51,660 nt of DNA from Elusimicrobiota bacterium (GCA_022013385.1 JAKLQJ010000061.1:1-51660); one strand, 5' to 3'; positions 6,491 to 14,001 are shown, numbered from the stretch's first letter. Notes: a model not told the origin generated them from the letters alone. Numbers and translations: made by a program.

Positions 6491-7498
6491 TTATATCTTG
6501 TATATCTCAAGTATATCGCCGTTCATTCTAAATCCAAAATTACTATCAATCTCGGGATAAATCACATCTGCATCGCTTATATCCGAAGCCTTCAAAACAA
6601 AATGTGATTCCGCCGGATAAGACACCAAACCAATAATTAAATTATCCGTAAATTTCGCTCCTTTATTGCCCTGAATAAGCTCATAACCGCAGACTAATCT
6701 GTATTCTTTGGATAATTTAACAATTTCGGATTTTTTGGCTATCGCATCACCCAATGCTTCAATCGTAATATCCACAACTTTTTCTGTTCCTCTCGTTATT
6801 TCAACAATGCTGTTTTCGGGAGAACTCATCTTAATAAAAAGTTTTAAGATATATGTATCACCGTCTATATATACTTTTTTACTTCCGCGCATAAACATTG
6901 AAACATTTGCTATTTCCTTGCCATTGACCAAATATTGCTTTCCTTTATCCGTCGTTAAAACTACAAAATATCTATCATTCCCTTTGCAGTTGCTTCCGCC
7001 ATCGGGACAATTAGCGGCTTTCGTTCCGCTCACATGAACTATTGTTCCCTTAGTCGTTTTGAATGTAACCGCCGTCCTAAGATACTTATTCTTTATTTTG
7101 GAAAGATCAAAAGAATAAACGGCCGACGCTGAGTTTAGGGATTTACTGGGAAAAAGCGCCATAGCTTTAGAAGTTTTCAATTTGCCCAAATTACGATCAA
7201 AATACTCAAAAATATCAATATCCTTTCCGGCAGAAACCTTATCACTTATTGAGGGCGCGGGCATTTCTATTTCAACAGAAGCGTCACAATTTTCCGTTGA
7301 ATCCTCAAAGTTTTCATAAAAAATTCCGGCATTTGATAAGCCATAGGCTTGGCCGTCCACGATAGGCATCCCGCCCATGGCGGGACGGCACTGGTAGGCT
7401 TGGCCGTCCACGATAGGCATAGCCTCTGATACGGCACTGCCATAGGCTTGTAAAACGCCAAAAAACAATGCCATAGCCAAAACGCCTATTTTATTCAT
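6491..7498 (-). CDS. secreted hypothetical protein; N-terminal linker encoded by repeat elements
   Basis: Signal-peptide-like MNKIGVLAMALFFGVLQA at the preferred start (7498). No recognisable family. Codons for AYGSAVSEAMPIVDGQAY...MPIVDGQAY are repeat-derived. Confidence 0.6.
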   Translation of the reverse strand: MNKIGVLAMALFFGVLQAYGSAVSEAMPIVDGQAYQCRPAMGGMPIVDGQAYGLSNAGIFYENFEDSTENCDASVEIEMPAPSISDKVSAGKDIDIFEYFDRNLGKLKTSKAMALFPSKSLNSASAVYSFDLSKIKNKYLRTAVTFKTTKGTIVHVSGTKAANCPDGGSNCKGNDRYFVVLTTDKGKQYLVNGKEIANVSMFMRGSKKVYIDGDTYILKLFIKMSSPENSIVEITRGTEKVVDITIEALGDAIAKKSEIVKLSKEYRLVCGYELIQGNKGAKFTDNLIIGLVSYPAESHFVLKASDISDADVIYPEIDSNFGFRMNGDILEIYKI

Positions 7499-7666
7499 AT
7501 TGTTTTCGATAAAACTGTTCATGTTATGTTATAGTATGAGAAACCGGTATTGTCAAGGGACCATAGACCATAGTTAGATCTATTTATGATTTGACAGACG
7601 AACACACAAACCGCCTTTATTTTTAAATTTCTTGATGTATAGGAATTTCAAAGTTTGTACGGCAGA

Positions 7667-7796
7667 GTGGACTACGCTATCGTGTCGTGTGTATGTAGGA
7701 CACGGTTCAATGTTCACCTTGGGATAAACCCATGGTGCCCTGATGCATATCGGGGGCAAGTGGACTACGCTATCGTGTCGTGCGTTTGTAGGACAC
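7667..7796. repeat. two direct copies of GTGGACTACGCTATCGTGTCGTG-n-TGTAGGACAC (7667-7703 and 7760-7796)
   Basis: Read directly. These copies create the spurious 76-aa ORF at 7580-7810. Confidence 0.85.
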
Positions 7797-7810
7797 CCAT
7801 TAGTGATCAA

Positions 7811-7855
7811 GCGTGTTAGCTCTGCGTAGTTGCCTGATTTATCAGGCCTAATTTA
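7811..7855. repeat. 45-bp repeat GCGTGTTAGCTCTGCGTAGTTGCCTGATTTATCAGGCCTAATTTA, copy 1
   Basis: Near-identical copy (1-nt indel) at 28259-28302. Contains the CCTGAT/ATCAGG hairpin. Confidence 0.9.
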
Positions 7856-7914: not shown

Positions 7915-8778
7915 ATGAACAACACGATAAGAAAAACTTTCATTCTGTTATCCATTATCGCCATAGCAACCACGCATTCAAGCGCTAAATGGACAAAACT
8001 GCTCAATTTCGCTTTAACCATAAATCAATCAAAATCCAAAACCGGACAGACAGGGACTTTATACTCAAAAGAAAGTTTGAATTATGGCATTCTCATAAAC
8101 GGAGAACTTACAAAGGACATTGAAAAATATAATTGGAAAAACACATTGAATTTAGAATATTCCAGCACAAAAAACAAAGATGAATCCGATCCCGCTTCAA
8201 GCGGCAAATGGACCGAAAGCAATGATAAATTGACAATTGATTCCATACGCAGATGGAAAACAATTAAGGCCATTAATCCCTATCTCGCCGTAAACTTTCA
8301 AACTTCCATGCGGGACGCGAATCATATGAATGAATGGATGGCATTTCGGCCATTACAATTTAGAGAAAGTACCGGAATAGGAAGCCCTTTAATTTCAAGT
8401 GTAAACCAGGATCTTGTAGTAAGAACAGGTTGTTTTATCCAGCATTATGCCAATATTCCAAAAAACATAGGACTTTATGAAAACTCAAATGGAATAGAAT
8501 TAGTGCTTGATTATAAAAACACCGTTAGAAAAAATATAGCTTTCACATCCAAGGCCGGATTTTATTCAAGTTTCAACAAAACTCAAGATCCTTGGAATTC
8601 CGCGACAAAATCAAAGAAAATAAAACTAGAATGGGATAATACGCTTATAACCGCAATAACAAAATACATAAGCCTAAATATGAGTTGGAACATAGACAAT
8701 ATAGATACGACTTCGGGCCATGCCAATTACGAATGGGAAGAAAAACTCAATATAGCGCTTAATTGGAAAGTTTTTTAG
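7915..8778 (+). CDS. putative outer-membrane beta-barrel protein (possibly DUF3078-like)
   Basis: Signal peptide MNNTIRKTFILLSIIAIATTHSSA, alternating beta-strand-like pattern, and a C-terminal ...NWKVF ending in Phe as in many OMPs. Confidence 0.5.
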   Translation: MNNTIRKTFILLSIIAIATTHSSAKWTKLLNFALTINQSKSKTGQTGTLYSKESLNYGILINGELTKDIEKYNWKNTLNLEYSSTKNKDESDPASSGKWTESNDKLTIDSIRRWKTIKAINPYLAVNFQTSMRDANHMNEWMAFRPLQFRESTGIGSPLISSVNQDLVVRTGCFIQHYANIPKNIGLYENSNGIELVLDYKNTVRKNIAFTSKAGFYSSFNKTQDPWNSATKSKKIKLEWDNTLITAITKYISLNMSWNIDNIDTTSGHANYEWEEKLNIALNWKVF

Positions 8779-8786
8779 ATAATGAT

Positions 8787-9522
8787 AATGGGGTCAGCCA
8801 CCATTTATATGATGTTTATGATATAATCTATATTATGCCAAGAGCAGAGAGAACAGATATTGGTGAATATGTGTACCATGCGCTAAATAGAGCAAACGCT
8901 CGAGTGCGGATATTTGATTGCGACAAAGATTATCAGCTTTTTGAAAATACGCTTGAAGAGGCGGTGAAAAAGCATGACATGAGGCTTTTGTCTTATTGTC
9001 TTATGCCCAATCATTGGCATTTAATCCTCCATCCAAAGAATAATGGAGATATGGCGCAATTTATGGGGTGGCTCACCAACACTCACACAAGAAGGTGGCA
9101 TACCAAGAAAGGCACCATCGGGCAAGGTCACCTTTATCAAGGCAGGTATAAATCATTTCTATGTCAAGATGATAATCATTTTCTTGCCCTTGCGCGCTAT
9201 GTAGAGCGCAATGCCAAAAGGGCAAATTTGGTTAAAAAGGCGGAAAAGTGGAAGTGGTCCAGTTTATGGAGACGAGAGAATGGAACAATTAAAGAAAAGA
9301 AAATTCTCTCAATATGGCCGGTGTATATGCCAAACGATTATTTAAACTGGCTCAACCAAGCGCAAATAGAAGATGAAGAGGAAGGAATCAGAAAATCCAT
9401 TCTTAAAGGCATTCCCTACGGAAATGGTGTTTGGGTAGGCAATGTGGTTAAAAGTTTTGGGCTTGAGCAAACGCTAAGGAAAGTGGGGAGACCAAAAATA
9501 AAAAATGGTGGCTGACCCCATT
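8787..9522. mobile_element. IS200/RAYT-like element bounded by perfect 20-bp inverted repeats
   Basis: AATGGGGTCAGCCACCATTT at 8787-8806 and its exact reverse complement AAATGGTGGCTGACCCCATT at 9503-9522. The element encloses a Y1 HUH transposase gene whose stop codon lies inside the right repeat. Confidence 0.75.
8835..9515 (+). CDS. Y1 (HUH) transposase, IS200-like / REP-associated tyrosine transposase-like
   Basis: HUH motif in LMPNHWHLILHP and a catalytic-Tyr region LARYVERNAKRANL. The ATG at 8835 (MPRAERTDIGEYVYHALNRANARVRIF) is preferred over the ORF-track start at 8763. Confidence 0.85.
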   Translation: MPRAERTDIGEYVYHALNRANARVRIFDCDKDYQLFENTLEEAVKKHDMRLLSYCLMPNHWHLILHPKNNGDMAQFMGWLTNTHTRRWHTKKGTIGQGHLYQGRYKSFLCQDDNHFLALARYVERNAKRANLVKKAEKWKWSSLWRRENGTIKEKKILSIWPVYMPNDYLNWLNQAQIEDEEEGIRKSILKGIPYGNGVWVGNVVKSFGLEQTLRKVGRPKIKNGG

Positions 9523-9546
9523 TGTCCATTTGCATTTCATTTGTCT

Positions 9547-9892
9547 TTATTGGGATATGATTTTTTTAAGTTCTTCAATATTAGGAATCCTGCCTGAAAA
9601 TACAATATTGGAAGCTATGCTTCATAAAGTGTCGGCAGTTATACGAACGACCAATATTTCCGTCAATAGCCAAAGCGGGCGTGGACTGGGCTTTCAAAGG
9701 ACAGCTACGGACACAAGTTCTCGCGCCACCATCTTGCAGTGTAGTCATAGCTCCCATATCAAATATCTTATTTATATCGTCAATCTTCTCTATTTCATAT
9801 TCAATGCCAAGCTCTTTTGCGGCTTGTTTAACCGATTCATAAAGTTTTTCACATTTCGGGCATCCTAGTCCAAGTATTTGTATTTTTTTCAT
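9547..9892 (-). pseudogene. thioredoxin-fold redox-active disulfide protein (paralogue of 11044-11280) disrupted by a 49-bp insertion, plus a 60-nt in-frame extra segment
   Basis: N-terminus MKKIQILGLGCPKCEKLYESVKQAAKELGIEYEIEKIDDINKIFDMG matches the paralogue. Removing 9610-9658 restores AIDGNIVFSGRIPNIEELKKIISQ*, which is collinear with the paralogue's AIDGEVKFSARIPTKEVLKEILSR*. Confidence 0.7.
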
Positions 9893-9937
9893 TTTACTCT
9901 CCTAAAAAATTGCACATAAAAAAGCGTTTTAATTCGA

Positions 9938-10852
9938 CTATTTTTTAAAAAAGTCTTTATCGGAGCAATACTCCGTTTCAAATTGCAAAGTGCAATAACT
10001 AATGCCGTATTTCTCCTTTAAAAGATTTTCAATTTTTTTTGAAATCGGACACACGGCCGAAAGCATGCAATCAGGCATATCTATATGAGCTTCAAAATAA
10101 ACTGTATTTTCGTCAGCTAGCCAAGTATGAACATGGTGAATATTGCTTACCTCGTCCATTGCCTCTATGTCTTTTCGCAAACAATCATAATCAATATCAG
10201 CGGAAGACTGCATTAAAATATCTATTGATTTTTTTAATATCTTCCAGCTTTCAAAAATAATATATGCCGCTATACCGATTGTAAGAAGGGGATCTATCCA
10301 TAATATTCCCCAAAATCTGATAACTATGCCGCCAAGAAGAACTCCAACCGAAGAAACCATGTCTCCCATCATATGCAAATAAGCCGAACGAACATTCATA
10401 TTTCCATGAGAATCCTTTTCAAGCAATACCATGGAAAATAAATTAGCAAAAAGGCCGAAAGCGGCAACACCTATCATAAGAGAGCTGTTTATAATTTCAG
10501 GATTTGTAAAACGCTTCACTCCCTCAAAAATAAGAAATATTGAAATTGCAATCAAAGTTGAAGCATTAATAAAAGCGGCTATAATTTGAGCCCGTTTATA
10601 TCCGTAGGTCTTGCGCATATTTTTTTCTTTGCCGGATATTTTCCATGCGAAAAAGCTCAATGCTATGGATATTGTGTCGCTTAAATTATGTATGGCATCT
10701 GAAAGCAATGCCAAACTTCCGGATAAAATTCCGCCGGCTATTTCAACCGCCGTAATAAAGGCGTTTAAAAGCGTCACCCAAAAGAATTTTTTTGTTGACA
10801 GTTTTCTCGCTCCGTGAGAATGACCTGAACATTTATGATGATGATTTTTCAC
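9938..10852 (-). CDS. cation diffusion facilitator (CDF) family divalent-metal efflux transporter (CzcD/ZitB-like)
   Basis: His-rich N-terminus (KNHHHKCSGHSHG), six predicted TM segments, HxxxD-type motifs (LSDAIHNLSD, HMMGDMV) and a C-terminal cytoplasmic domain. GTG at 10852 is preceded by AGGAGG. Confidence 0.88.
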   Translation of the reverse strand: MKNHHHKCSGHSHGARKLSTKKFFWVTLLNAFITAVEIAGGILSGSLALLSDAIHNLSDTISIALSFFAWKISGKEKNMRKTYGYKRAQIIAAFINASTLIAISIFLIFEGVKRFTNPEIINSSLMIGVAAFGLFANLFSMVLLEKDSHGNMNVRSAYLHMMGDMVSSVGVLLGGIVIRFWGILWIDPLLTIGIAAYIIFESWKILKKSIDILMQSSADIDYDCLRKDIEAMDEVSNIHHVHTWLADENTVYFEAHIDMPDCMLSAVCPISKKIENLLKEKYGISYCTLQFETEYCSDKDFFKK

Positions 10853-10910
10853 TAAGCCTCCTAAAAAAACAAAAAACCGCCGCAAAAAACAATAATGTAA
10901 TTTTTTTCAT

Positions 10911-10984
10911 CCTACCACCTCCTCACTACTAATCTTTGATTGATATTTTTTTTAAGCCGCTTTGCGGTTTGAGGGGTGGTAGGG
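10911..10984. repeat. hairpin element with arms CCTACCACCTCCTCA / TGAGGGGTGGTAGGG
   Basis: Arms are at 10911-10925 and 10970-10984. The same arm family bounds 42697-42824. Confidence 0.75.
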
Positions 10985-11043
10985 TCATAAAATTTCCTCT
11001 GACTTACCTTTCCCCTAATTATCATACGACATTTAAACTTATC

Positions 11044-11280
11044 TTACCTGCTCAATATTTCCTTCAAAACTTCCTTTGTCGGTATTCTGGCCGAAAACTT
11101 AACTTCACCGTCAATGGCTAAAGCGGGAGTAGCCATAACGCCCATATCGGTTATCTTATTTATATCGTTTATCTTTTCCATTTCATATTCAATGCCAAGT
11201 TCTTTTGCGGCTTCTTCAGCTTGAGCGTAAAGATTTTCACATTTCTGGCAACCCATTCCAAGTATTTGTATTTTTTTCAT
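11044..11280 (-). CDS. thioredoxin-fold redox-active disulfide protein (small CxxC protein)
   Basis: MKKIQILGMGCQKCENLY...TPALAIDGEVKFSARIP, with a CxxC motif. GGAGG lies 5 nt upstream of the ATG at 11280. The usual partner genes (permease and ArsR) are adjacent. Confidence 0.8.
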   Translation of the reverse strand: MKKIQILGMGCQKCENLYAQAEEAAKELGIEYEMEKINDINKITDMGVMATPALAIDGEVKFSARIPTKEVLKEILSR

Positions 11281-11388
11281 ACTTTCCTCCAATAATGACA
11301 GATTAATTTTAAAATTAAAAACAACTTATTGTTTTAATTTACAATCTACTCAACTGTTCTCCAATTTCTGTATCGCTGGCGCGCTGTA

Positions 11389-12696
11389 TCATTGCCGCGC
11401 TATCATACTTCCGTATATCATACCGGCCGCCGTGGACATTATGATAACCAAAACAACAAAAACAGCCGTTTTTTTATTTCCCATCACCTGCCTTAAAACC
11501 AGCATATTAGGTAAAGAAAGAGCGGGACCTGACAACAACAAAGCAAGCGCAGGACCTTTACCCATACCATTTCCCATAAGCCCCTCAAGAATAGGCACTT
11601 CCGTCAATGTGGCAAAGTACATAAAAGCTCCAACTATGGACGAGAAAAAATTAGCTCTTAAAGAATTGCCACCCACAGCCATTTCAACCCATTGCGCAGG
11701 AATTATACCTTCATTTCCGGGCCGCCCGAGCAGGAAACCTGCCGCGATTACGCCTATGAATAAAAGCGGCACAATCATCTTCGCGAAATCCCATGATGAA
11801 ACAAACCAATCTTTCATTTCACCTTTAGTTGTATTGAGAATATAGGAAAGACCGATAAAACCCGCGAAAAATGACACGACAGGATACTCTGGCAAAATGA
11901 TAGCAAGAATAATAGAAGGCATTGAGGCAATAATAATTTTGGAAATTTTAATATCAAAATATTTGATAAGAGTAAAAGCAAAAATAATCGCTGACAATGA
12001 AGTTAGAATCCATTTTTTTACATAAATAAAATACCATATCCCCGTTGAAACGGATGGCTTAGCCCAATTGGCAAAAACAAGAACTCCGACCATTGCGCCA
12101 AAATAAACAATAGTCTGCCATAATGGCCTTATTTCCTCTTCTTGCGGTAAATCAATCTGTTTCTTAGCTTTCTCTAATTCTTCTTTCCTGAATATAAAAT
12201 GCATTGAAAGGCCTATAATAAGGCTGAATAAAATAGCTCCAATGGCTCTCGCTATGCCGAGTTCAAAACCCAAAACTCTTGCGGTAAGCGCTATGGCAAG
12301 AATATTTATAGCCGGCCCCGAATATAAAAAGGTTATGGCAGGTCCTAGCCCCGCTCCTCTCTTATAAATTCCCGCAAAAAGCGGAAGTATTGTGCAGGAG
12401 CAAACAGCTAATATCGTTCCCGAAACGGAAGCAACGGCATAAGAAATAACTTTATTGGCTTTTGCGCCGAAATATTTCATCACTGCGTTTTGGCTGACAA
12501 AAACGGCAATCGCTCCGGCTATAAATAAAGCGGGCACAAGGCATAAAATAACATGCTCTCGCGCATACCATTTGATGAGATAAAGAGCCTCAAAAACCGC
12601 ATTGTCAAACCGTTCAAAGCCAACAGGCAAAAAAAAGAAAAAAACGAATAATCCGGCAAGTCCCGCCAAATATTTCCATTCTTTAGTCCAATTCAT
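11389..12696 (-). CDS. multi-pass permease, ArsP/YraQ-type
   Basis: About 10-12 hydrophobic segments and a vicinal-Cys motif AVCSCTILPLFAG, as in ArsP-type permeases. It overlaps the arsR stop by 4 nt. Confidence 0.78.
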   Translation of the reverse strand: MNWTKEWKYLAGLAGLFVFFFFLPVGFERFDNAVFEALYLIKWYAREHVILCLVPALFIAGAIAVFVSQNAVMKYFGAKANKVISYAVASVSGTILAVCSCTILPLFAGIYKRGAGLGPAITFLYSGPAINILAIALTARVLGFELGIARAIGAILFSLIIGLSMHFIFRKEELEKAKKQIDLPQEEEIRPLWQTIVYFGAMVGVLVFANWAKPSVSTGIWYFIYVKKWILTSLSAIIFAFTLIKYFDIKISKIIIASMPSIILAIILPEYPVVSFFAGFIGLSYILNTTKGEMKDWFVSSWDFAKMIVPLLFIGVIAAGFLLGRPGNEGIIPAQWVEMAVGGNSLRANFFSSIVGAFMYFATLTEVPILEGLMGNGMGKGPALALLLSGPALSLPNMLVLRQVMGNKKTAVFVVLVIIMSTAAGMIYGSMIARQ

Positions 12697-13019
12697 ATAT
12701 GCCGCCTTTTTTCTTTGGCTGATATTTCTAAAATCTTAGCAACACAAGACATAAACTCCAATATACACGGACACTTAAGCTTGTAAAAAATCCGATTCCC
12801 CTTTCTGTTGATATCCACAAGGCCGGCATTTTTAAGCACAGAGAGATGCTTTGAAACGGTTGATATGTCATTGCCTATCGCTTTTGTAAGTTCGCATACG
12901 CAAATATCGCGCTTTGAAAGCATATTCACTATTAAAAGCCTTGTCGGATGGGAAAGCGCTTTTATTGCGGAAGCTTGCTGAAGAAACTTCATTTTCAATT
13001 TACTCTTCATATCAATCAC
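12693..13019 (-). CDS. arsR: ArsR/SmtB family metalloregulator
   Basis: LSHPTRLLIVNMLSKRDICVCELTKAIGNDISTVSKHLSVLKNAGLV is a wHTH with the CVC metalloid-binding motif. Confidence 0.9.
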   Translation of the reverse strand: MIDMKSKLKMKFLQQASAIKALSHPTRLLIVNMLSKRDICVCELTKAIGNDISTVSKHLSVLKNAGLVDINRKGNRIFYKLKCPCILEFMSCVAKILEISAKEKRRHI

Positions 13020-13069
13020 CTATTTGTCTATTTTGCCAAATAACCAAATACATGTCAATAAATAATGAT

Positions 13070-13307
13070 AATGGGGTCAGCCACCATTTATATGCAATAT
13101 GGCCGGTGCATATGCCAAACGATTATTTAAACTGGCTCAACCAAGCGCAAATAGAAGATGAAGAGAAAGGAATCAGAAAATCCATTCTTAAAGGCATTCC
13201 CTACGGAAATGGTGTTTGGGTAGGCAATGTGGTTAAAAGTTTTGGGCTTGAGCAAACGCTAAGGAAAGTGGGGAGACCGAAAATAAAAAATGGTGGCTGA
13301 CCCCATT
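13070..13307. mobile_element. internally deleted (about 500 bp missing) copy of the 8787-9522 element, same orientation
   Basis: Same 20-bp ends, at 13070-13089 and 13288-13307. 13094-13307 matches 9310-9522 with 3 mismatches by my count. Only the last 68 or so transposase codons are retained. Confidence 0.8.
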
Positions 13308-13320
13308 ATCCATTATCACA

Positions 13321-14001
13321 TTATACTATTGGCGAAACCATATATTTCGCCAATTCGGCGAAGCGTTCCTTGTGCCTGTGATAAAAGGGCAACAGTGCCT
13401 GATATTCTTTGACCTTGTCGGCGTTCTTTACTTCTATGATCCGGATATCATGGGGAAGGCGTTTTTTGATATTATGGTAGGCGCCGATAAAAATAATTCC
13501 TGTTTGACCGTCGCTCAGTGTTTCATAGATTCTTTTGGCGATAAATTCGTCCCGCTTGTTCAGGAGCCTGTTTTTGCTCAATTTATACATCATAAAAGCG
13601 AGCAATTTGCCGAACAGGGTCTTGGCCCGGGTTATCTTAAGCATCCGGTCACGTTCTTCCCTGACCAGATTAAAATCCTCCGTTTTGATCAACACTGCCC
13701 CTCTTTTCAGAAGCCCCGCGACCAATTCGTAGTTTTTGCTTCCTGATTTCACCCCTTCCTCCACTATTTTCTGCGCGACCTCGCCGTCAGTGATCATCCC
13801 GTCCTGGTACAGCCTAAAACCGGACACCTCAATTGAATTGAGATATTCAATAAGCGCATCCCAGAAGGCCAGGATCGTACGCTCATGCTCCGCCCAGAAT
13901 TCCGGGCCGAAATCCGCCATTCCTCTCTTGGTCACCTCTTTTGCCAAAGAGCCAAGGTCGACGCTTGAATGGATAACAGGAACATAAATTAGAGTTCTCA
14001 T
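13321..14001 (-). CDS. hypothetical protein (226 aa), last co-directional gene of the gvp island
   Basis: Long ORF with AGGAG 7 nt upstream of the ATG. No family recognised; membership of the gvp island is inferred only from position and strand. Confidence 0.55.
   Translation of the reverse strand: MRTLIYVPVIHSSVDLGSLAKEVTKRGMADFGPEFWAEHERTILAFWDALIEYLNSIEVSGFRLYQDGMITDGEVAQKIVEEGVKSGSKNYELVAGLLKRGAVLIKTEDFNLVREERDRMLKITRAKTLFGKLLAFMMYKLSKNRLLNKRDEFIAKRIYETLSDGQTGIIFIGAYHNIKKRLPHDIRIIEVKNADKVKEYQALLPFYHRHKERFAELAKYMVSPIV

Follow-up and report, generated by a model that had tools for sequence, protein, structure and literature searches.

A TIRtron-like transposase gene and its decayed copy on either side of a resident metal/arsenical operon in an Elusimicrobiota genome

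In a 51,660-nucleotide stretch of an Elusimicrobiota bacterium genome (GCA_022013385.1, JAKLQJ010000061.1:1-51660; hereafter the window, from whose first letter all unprefixed coordinates are counted), positions 8787-9522 very probably represent a TIRtron, that is, a single RAYT-like Y1/HUH gene (TIRYT) enclosed by 20-bp terminal inverted repeats (TIRs), with a decayed copy at 13070-13307 and a metal/arsenical operon between the two that is resident rather than imported. TIRtrons were introduced as RAYT-like genes lying between long inverted repeats, their proteins being called TIRYTs, and were reported to have TIRs that share GGGGWSAS and repeat families that occur as singles, dimers and clusters (Di Nocera et al. 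2013, BMC Genomics 14:522; PMC3733652). The element is thus of an already described kind, and the locus is a clear example of such an element moving and decaying into miniature repeats, not a resistance transposon. The window belongs to a 2.85-Mb metagenome-assembled genome (MAG) of 299 contigs that is 97.7% complete (G000); G001, G002 and G003 are congeners, the last of them 78% complete, and the prefixes C and L denote contigs and loci, respectively.

The full unit and its short copy

The full unit measures 736 bp (8787-9522) and consists of perfect 20-bp inverted ends around the gene for a 226-amino-acid Y1/HUH protein. Its terminal 20-mer, AATGGGGTCAGCCACCATTT, matches the window four times (8787-8806 and 13070-13089 on the plus strand, 9503-9522 and 13288-13307 on the minus strand), against 0.01 matches expected in shuffled sequence. 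The inverted repeats are perfect over 20 bp, and over 23 bp in the short copy (copy 2). The parts of the two copies are as follows.

8776-8786, plus strand: sub-terminal 9-11 nt TAGATAATGAT, outside the inverted repeat and common to copy 2
8787-8806, plus strand: left TIR, AATGGGGTCAGCCACCATTT, which contains GGGGTCAG and fits the TIRYT consensus GGGGWSAS
8835-9515, plus strand: TIRYT gene, RAYT-like Y1/HUH transposase of 226 amino acids (open reading frame with ATG start; Pfam Y1_Tnp, 62.7 bits)
9503-9522, minus strand: right TIR of the full unit (20-mer match)
9523-9548, no strand: CATTT-rich tail TGTCCATTTGCATTTCATTTGTCT, without counterpart in the congeners
13059-13069, plus strand: sub-terminal 11 nt TAAATAATGAT of copy 2; the four-genome homology ends just before it, after TGTCAA
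13070-13307, plus strand: copy 2, a non-autonomous internal-deletion derivative of 238 bp (alignment with copy 1)

The GGGGWSAS core is present as GGGGTCAG within AATGGGGTCAGCC; a GT[AG]G tetranucleotide, the foot of canonical REPs, is absent from the TIR when this is read directly. At the right end, the last codons of the gene and its TGA stop fall within the TIR. At the left end, TGATATAAT, by visual reading an extended -10-like box, lies 8-9 nt upstream of the ATG (region 8818-8837), and no Shine-Dalgarno sequence is visible; this placement suggests a leaderless transcript. A consensus promoter scan of the left end called no promoter. A similar box stands at the equivalent position in several inspected homologues from other phyla.

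Copy 2, which has the same orientation, equals 8787-8811 (25 bp) joined to 9310-9522 (213 bp). Missing are 498 bp (8812-9309), removed in frame at a blunt joint without microhomology, so that what remains is the left TIR with 5 adjoining nt, the terminal 193 nt of the interior including the 3′ end of the open reading frame, and the right TIR. The remainder differs from copy 1 at 3 of 213 positions (9324, 9381 and 9494; 98.6% identity), and the longest exact stretch common to both is 112 bp. With promoter, start codon and the entire catalytic core deleted, copy 2 is unable to encode the enzyme. In all these respects, the first-pass annotation, which had described a complete Y1 HUH element with perfect 20-bp termini and a second copy lacking about 500 bp with three differences, agrees with the alignment and the Pfam match.

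The stretch over which the two copies are similar has its right limit exactly where the right TIR ends, but its left limit 9-11 nt outside the left TIR, where 8776-8811 and 13059-13094 match at 97% and TA[G/A]ATAATGAT precedes both copies. The sub-terminal TAGATAATGAT thus probably belonged to the copied unit although it lies outside the inverted repeat, and the contrast between the two ends suggests, by analogy with IS608, an offset left cleavage site. We also considered ATAATGAT as a target motif, a role that the first-pass annotation had raised. It stands directly before the TIR at none of the 13 other TIR sites in G000 and is missing at about 35 sites elsewhere; on C83, it lies 17 nt upstream of a TIR doublet, among degenerate ATAATG repeats. 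Since it is missing at other insertions, ATAATGAT more likely travelled with the copied unit. Half-TIR or CATTT repeats similar to the tail at 9523-9548 follow the TIRs at other loci as well.

Affiliation of the transposase

Beyond the Pfam family, the protein scored 63.8 bits with the NCBIfam model REP_Tyr_transpos (NF047646), short of the equivalog cutoff of 80, and 14.1 bits with the IS200 model (NF033573), the cutoff of which is 55. The HuH motif is N59-H60-W61-H62 (NHWH) and Tyr122 lies within YVERNA; H60, H62 and Y122 are invariant in 28 homologues, and the NA of YVERNA, which departs from the class 2 motif Y-x3-N-P, is kept throughout the close clade. An AlphaFold model built from a 28-sequence alignment (pLDDT 87.7, pTM 0.86) found its best Foldseek match in the PDB in Escherichia coli TnpA-REP with a REP hairpin (4ER8; E 7.7e-8 over 143 columns), followed by ISDra2 TnpA at 3.5e-5, with the ISDra2 and IS608 TnpA matches at that value or weaker over approximately 106 columns. 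Only this fold search separated the two groups: a PDB profile search scored ISDra2 TnpA (6.6e-6) and TnpA-REP (1.5e-5) too closely to tell them apart, and a PDB search with the single sequence gave no relevant match. Residues ~143-214 form a confidently modelled helical C-terminal extension, a fold without an assigned Pfam family; residues 141-226, and the whole protein beyond Y1_Tnp, gave no Pfam match at E values up to 10.

Profile scores and the predicted fold place the protein nearer to RAYTs than to IS200 transposases, and the same features suggest that it lies outside IS200/IS605 subclass 1.1; its subclass assignment rests on motifs, hidden Markov model scores, the fold match and the repeat motif. 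More distant homologues in the same bacterial family (222-226 amino acids, 34-39% identity) have flanking inverted repeats of their own, 17-27 nt long, which carry GGGGACAG or GGGACAG, and the protein motif YIE[GR]NP (YIEGNP or YIERNP).

The repeat family in the genome and its relatives

The 20-mer is present in G000 in 15 exact and 2 near copies (1-2 mismatches), 17 in total on 8 contigs, whereas the reversed control gave none. Outside the window, these copies form pairs on C75, C77 and C189, a head-to-head doublet on C83, which folds at -26 kcal/mol, and singles on C120, C189 and C255; their flanks frequently hold half-repeats (AAATGGGGTCAG or GACCCCATTT) or CATTT runs. The genome has a single intact gene of the TIRYT type, and eight other Y1 genes are 25-37% identical to it. 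The DNA enclosed by paired TIRs outside the window is unrelated to the transposase. Two of these pairs, C189:6530-6777 and C77:291-435 (L007 and L005), enclose the last 166 bp of a pseudouridine-synthase-like gene (96% identity), the source of which is C291:1781-1946; one of the two units is further deleted, and in both the captured fragment is accompanied by a member of a separate 35-bp palindromic repeat family. Since the same captured host fragment lies between TIRs on both contigs, these are a repeat-bounded unit with host DNA at two loci.

The separate family of 35-bp perfect palindromes, AACCATTTTCCACCTCWGAGGTGGAAAATGGTT, is found, for example, at C291:2000-2040, C189:6553-6587 and C77:378-412, and at least 20 further contigs have members of it too; one of the eight other Y1 genes may have this palindrome as its cognate repeat. 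A G000-specific region adjoining TIRs, C189:9492-13522, encodes TPR-like proteins and a reverse transcriptase (12524-13522). An open reading frame for 373 amino acids in C189 (9550-10671) begins inside a TIR (MKMVADPI...), so that the TIR supplies its start codon.

A homologue search yielded 6025 protein matches. The best 120 of these are 66-85% identical and 222-252 amino acids long, and those among the 120 with a named source come from Patescibacteria and Omnitrophota MAGs. Three homologues viewed in context have a near-identical terminal repeat, the right one overlapping the conserved C-terminus (...GRPKNGG-stop). An exact-pattern scan for the TIR, covering one genome per species, detected it in at least 113 contigs of other genomes, mainly from many Patescibacteria classes, along with Elusimicrobiota, Omnitrophota, and a few Bacteroidota and Proteobacteria MAGs. 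The loci listed hold 201 TIR copies, and some 20 full units (718-758 bp) and 15 inverted pairs of shorter span were recognised in them. Of these 15 pairs, six, 91-427 bp in length, still contain parts of the transposase open reading frame and are therefore internal-deletion derivatives; six further ones are bare doublets of 51-69 bp. The series thus runs from full units via internal-deletion derivatives to the doublets, and the expectation that the element would give rise to non-autonomous derivatives resembling miniature inverted-repeat transposable elements (MITEs), and that its terminus would recur in the MAG and its relatives, is borne out well beyond G000. No target-site duplication is visible at the TIR loci compared; in other genomes, the bases directly outside the TIR are mostly GRA before it and the complement after it. 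Five Patescibacteria genomes carry one close gene copy each, one of them together with three divergent paralogues. One gene with many repeats points to a RAYT-like rather than an IS-like lifestyle.

Relocation of the whole unit

In a maximum-likelihood tree of within-clade sequences, the G000 gene, its nearest relative (at L035) and the G001 and G003 genes form one clade with 100/99 support, nested among Patescibacteria sequences; a Bacteroidota sequence is nested in another part of it. In G001 and G003, the orthologue sits between rpmB and yjbQ. In G000, rpmB and yjbQ are adjacent on C28, both intact, with an 84-bp spacer that holds no repeat, and in L035, the closest homologue found (85% identical), the gene occupies a third site. 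Because the site used in G001 and G003 is empty in G000, the compared gene orders show that the whole unit relocates between genomes. We also considered a separate acquisition of the G000 gene, which is 80% identical to the Patescibacteria copies and 75-77% to those of the congeners; the tree rejects it, given the 100/99 clade and the long G001/G003 branch.

Across the genus, TIR counts follow the gene loosely. Against the 17 copies in G000, G001 has three relics plus three of its own palindromic type, G002, in which no close homologue of the TIRYT gene was found, has five mostly mutated copies, and G003 has none of this type. The repeats that flank the gene in the congeners are perfect palindromes, AAATGGGGTC[A/T]GACCCCATTT (-10.5 kcal/mol), the G001 variant being without GT[AG]G. 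They lie at 1463-1485 and 2166-2187 of L010 (G001:C230) and in L011 (G003:C145), where the protein is on a long branch; the palindrome together with the long branch may reflect co-evolution of enzyme and repeat.

The operon between the copies

All five genes that the first-pass annotation had placed between the copies were found there, on the strand opposite to the transposase; the last entry below lies beyond copy 2.

9549-9892 (open reading frame 9581-9892), minus strand: thioredoxin-like trx1 pseudogene; only residues 3-51 match the family
9938-10885, minus strand: CDF-family cation efflux transporter (family profile match)
11044-11292, minus strand: intact MTH895/ArsE-type thioredoxin-like gene trx2 (family profile match)
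11389-12696, minus strand: PF03773 (ArsP_1) permease (Pfam)
12693-13019, minus strand: ArsR/SmtB metalloregulator (family profile match)
13321-14001, minus strand: first open reading frame, 226 amino acids, of a strain-specific gas-vesicle (gvp) island; no Pfam family

In G001, the order, in the same orientation, is DUF3078, nifX-like, arsC, intact trx, CDF, ArsP, ArsR and three C11-peptidase paralogues. G002 has DUF3078, nifX-like, arsC, trx, CDF and trx2, its ArsP-ArsR pair being on another, short contig, and G003 has trx2, ArsP, ArsR and a C11 peptidase; at this position, none of the three has an element. On the left, homology with G001 and G002 ends at GTTTTTTA (8777), the base directly preceding the third position of the DUF3078 stop codon, and restarts at the trx1 stop codon (9549-9551). 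On the right, the four genomes agree as far as TGTCAA (13058) upstream of arsR and then diverge, the operator-like region up to that point being conserved in four of four genus genomes. Neither arsC (low-molecular-weight protein tyrosine phosphatase type) nor the nifX-like gene has a match elsewhere in the nearly complete G000; since both are absent, copy 1 fills the place of approximately 0.9-2.5 kb of the ancestral cluster, as seen when window positions 8777-9549 are compared with 9366-10269 of L031 (G001:C274). Neither did composition give any sign of a foreign origin: the contrast that might have set the module apart did not materialise, its GC content being 0.377 against 0.393 for the genome and its tetranucleotide usage ordinary (54% of chunks drawn at random from the genome deviate from it as much or more). 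By conserved gene order, the arsR-arsP-trx-CDF-trx operon is a resident, chromosomal and ancestral one that was not brought in by the elements.

Within it, trx1 is interrupted by two dispersed repeats of ~50-60 bp (9597-9658 and 9681-9741), whereas its G001 orthologue is intact; these repeat families have dozens of copies in G001-G003. Further short dispersed repeats, also with many copies in these genomes, lie in the intergenic DNA around the module (10901-10999, 7399-7452, 7665-7717 and 7759-7811). Small repeats are unusually abundant in this genus and coincide with contig ends such as the start of C178.

The gas-vesicle side and synteny breakpoints

Copy 2 ends 13 bp before the open reading frame 13321-14001, so that it does abut the gvp island as previously described; a homologue of this frame, 65% identical, lies ~4 kb from gvp genes in genome G005. 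Where the congeners continue with C11 peptidases, which in G000 are on C178, the window has a region of ~19 kb with gvpF/L, gvpG, gvpO, a gvpJ-K fusion and volactin, for which G001-G003 gave no DNA match. Among 40 relatives, the GvpF/L protein of the island was found in one other genus only. Both copies thus sit at synteny breakpoints, copy 1 in place of the nifX-like gene and arsC and copy 2 at the island junction, and the TIR loci on C83, C75 and C189 likewise coincide with synteny breaks relative to the congeners. This is an association: a causal part of the elements in the rearrangements can at most be inferred, and they may merely accumulate in variable regions. A metagenome scan with a 22-mer from upstream of arsR, aimed at strain variants of the copy-2 site, returned one unrelated contig.

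A possible mechanism

If it works as IS608, ISDra2 and E. coli TnpA-REP do (PMC3333891, PMC3479197), the enzyme would cut and rejoin single-stranded DNA at or near the repeats by means of H60, H62 and Tyr122, the tyrosine forming a 5′-phosphotyrosine link before the ends are rejoined. Two inverted repeats on one strand could pair into a long hairpin, as in REPINs, and the DNA between them would be moved without a target-site duplication. In this manner, the gene may maintain the small TIR family of G000. Copy 2 very probably arose when the whole unit was copied to a second place and then lost its internal 498 bp; now MITE-like, it would depend on enzyme supplied by copy 1, and in other genomes the same decay goes as far as the 51-69-bp doublets, which resemble REPINs. 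The elements very probably arrived on both sides of the operon at points of genome rearrangement, and the resulting 213-bp direct repeats would leave the module prone to loss by homologous recombination.

Alternative explanations

The first-pass annotation had read the whole arrangement as a composite, transposon-like cassette, a 4.5-kb unit that imported the metal/arsenical module or was built by recombination. The outer ends, left in copy 1 and right in copy 2, do have the orientation needed to bracket 8787-13307, and TIR pairs in G000 can enclose foreign DNA, one such unit being present at two loci. Such a cassette is nevertheless very unlikely, because G001 and G002 have the module beside the same DUF3078 gene, with gene order and orientation unchanged, and G003 has arsP-arsR in the corresponding arrangement, none of them with elements there, which is the outcome that the annotation itself had named as decisive against it; furthermore, the module is genome-typical in composition and the homology with the congeners reaches the outer edge of each element. 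It is even less probable that metagenome assembly created copy 2, or the contact between copy 2 and the gvp island, by joining through a repeat. The number of contigs and the 112-bp exact stretch shared with copy 1 make such an error conceivable, but the unique deletion joint and three private substitutions mark copy 2 as a physically distinct sequence, and its left flank continues the conserved arsR upstream region unbroken.

Mobility and family raise two other possibilities. The gene might be an immobile, domesticated RAYT-like one, with copy 2 a product of recombination or segmental duplication, and rearranged surroundings as the reason why the gene has another locus in the congeners; it is single-copy in most genomes, all compared TIR loci are at synteny breakpoints in a high background of rearrangement, and the two copies are just 3.5 kb apart. 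We regard this as unlikely, given that the copies cease to resemble each other precisely at the outer boundary of the right TIR and 9-11 nt beyond the left one, that the rpmB-yjbQ site is cleanly empty in G000 with its flanking genes intact, that L035, in the same tree group, has the gene at a third site, and that TIR-bounded deletion derivatives recur in many genomes. For an ordinary IS200/IS605 insertion sequence with subterminal hairpins of its own, one can cite the Pfam family, the comparable profile scores of ISDra2 TnpA and TnpA-REP, and the lack of a visible target-site duplication. This reading is extremely improbable in view of the low IS200 model score, the length of 226 amino acids with a C-terminal extension, Y-x3-N in place of Y-x3-Q, ends that are perfect inverted repeats, a best fold match to TnpA-REP, and one intact gene per genome rather than several near-identical copies. 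The earlier preference for a RAYT-type arrangement, with the gene between inverted repeats, over IS200/IS605 is therefore retained and can be sharpened to a TIRtron encoding a TIRYT.

Several observations weigh against the TIRtron interpretation. The tyrosine motif YVERNA is unlike the Y---NP of class 2 TnpA-Y1, and Pfam finds no Bac_DnaA_C, HTH_23 or HTH_28 in the C-terminal tail, so that placement in subclass 2.1 is not secured. A lone TIR offers a Y1 enzyme only a weak hairpin to recognise (-3.6 kcal/mol, z -2.2), and fragmentation of the MAG into 299 contigs bears on the join at copy 2. Moreover, since the gene is single-copy in most genomes examined, its movement is perhaps very rare.

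Relation to known systems and significance

The element shares with TIRtrons a RAYT-like Y1/HUH gene, long TIRs instead of GTAG REPs, the GGGGWSAS sequence, a TIR that overlaps the 3′ end of the gene, and a moderately abundant family of singles, dimers and clusters. It differs in that the present clade is found mainly in Patescibacteria and Elusimicrobiota MAGs and in that its 20-mer is almost invariant across phyla. TIRYTs largely correspond to TnpA-Y1 subclass 2.1 (Quentin et al. 2018; PMC6006769), which equals RAYT Group 1 of Bertels et al. (2017; PMC5581495). With that subclass, the protein has in common its length (226 against a median of 238 amino acids), an NHxH form of HuH, the [FY]Q motif (GHLYQGRY) and a C-terminal extension, as well as a low gene copy number with occasional duplication; the ~12 flanking 16-mers per replicon described for the subclass compare with 17 copies of the 20-mer TIR here. 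It departs from the subclass in YVERNA instead of Y---NP (YIELNP or Y[IV]HLNP), in NHWH and in the missing C-terminal domain matches. Furthermore, subclass 2.1 was reported to be without associated repeats and without IS features (PMC6006769), whereas the present gene has a cognate repeat family.

REPtrons (E. coli TnpA-REP/RayT with REP/BIME; Pseudomonas RAYT-REPIN) provide the best structural match, and they too combine one gene between inverted repeats with dispersed repeats that partly form inverted doublets with long hairpins, as on C83. Unlike in REPtrons, the GT[AG]G guide tetranucleotide is absent, the single hairpin is weak, the copies number tens rather than hundreds, the REP_Tyr_transpos score is below its cutoff, and the gene has moved and been duplicated, with transfer between phyla in its phylogeny. 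IS200/IS605 elements (IS608, ISDra2) share the Y1/HUH catalytic fold and the absence of target-site duplications, and the copied unit appears to extend a few nucleotides past the left terminal structure, which recalls the offset cleavage sites of IS608; the present protein, however, is ~80 amino acids longer than IS200-type TnpA (~130-150 amino acids, Y-x3-Q) and has a tyrosine motif of the class 2 type, and the element has inverted repeats as ends, no tnpB and no multiple identical copies. The graded deletion series and the relocation of the whole unit are documented here; we found neither described in the cited TIRtron and RAYT literature.

More tentatively, and with less than even likelihood, the TIRYT clade may be a still-active, self-mobilising element that crosses phyla (Patescibacteria, Elusimicrobiota, Omnitrophota and Bacteroidota) and repeatedly seeds REPIN-like doublets by internal deletion. 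If so, it would be a living intermediate on the route, proposed by Bertels and Rainey, from an autonomous IS-like ancestor to domesticated RAYT-REPIN systems, and deletions, as well as the acquisition of islands such as the gas-vesicle one, may have their breakpoints at its copies. For annotation, the message is that the metal/arsenical operon is chromosomal and ancestral and that there is no mobile resistance cassette. TIRYT (subclass 2.1) genes are common yet barely studied. At this locus and its relatives, one sees a cognate repeat family, movement of gene plus repeats between sites in close genomes, and a decay series from a 736-bp unit to 51-bp doublets, so that the proposal that REP/REPIN-type repeats descend from an autonomous ancestor becomes directly examinable, while a 226-amino-acid enzyme with a 20-nt substrate offers a compact system for biochemistry.

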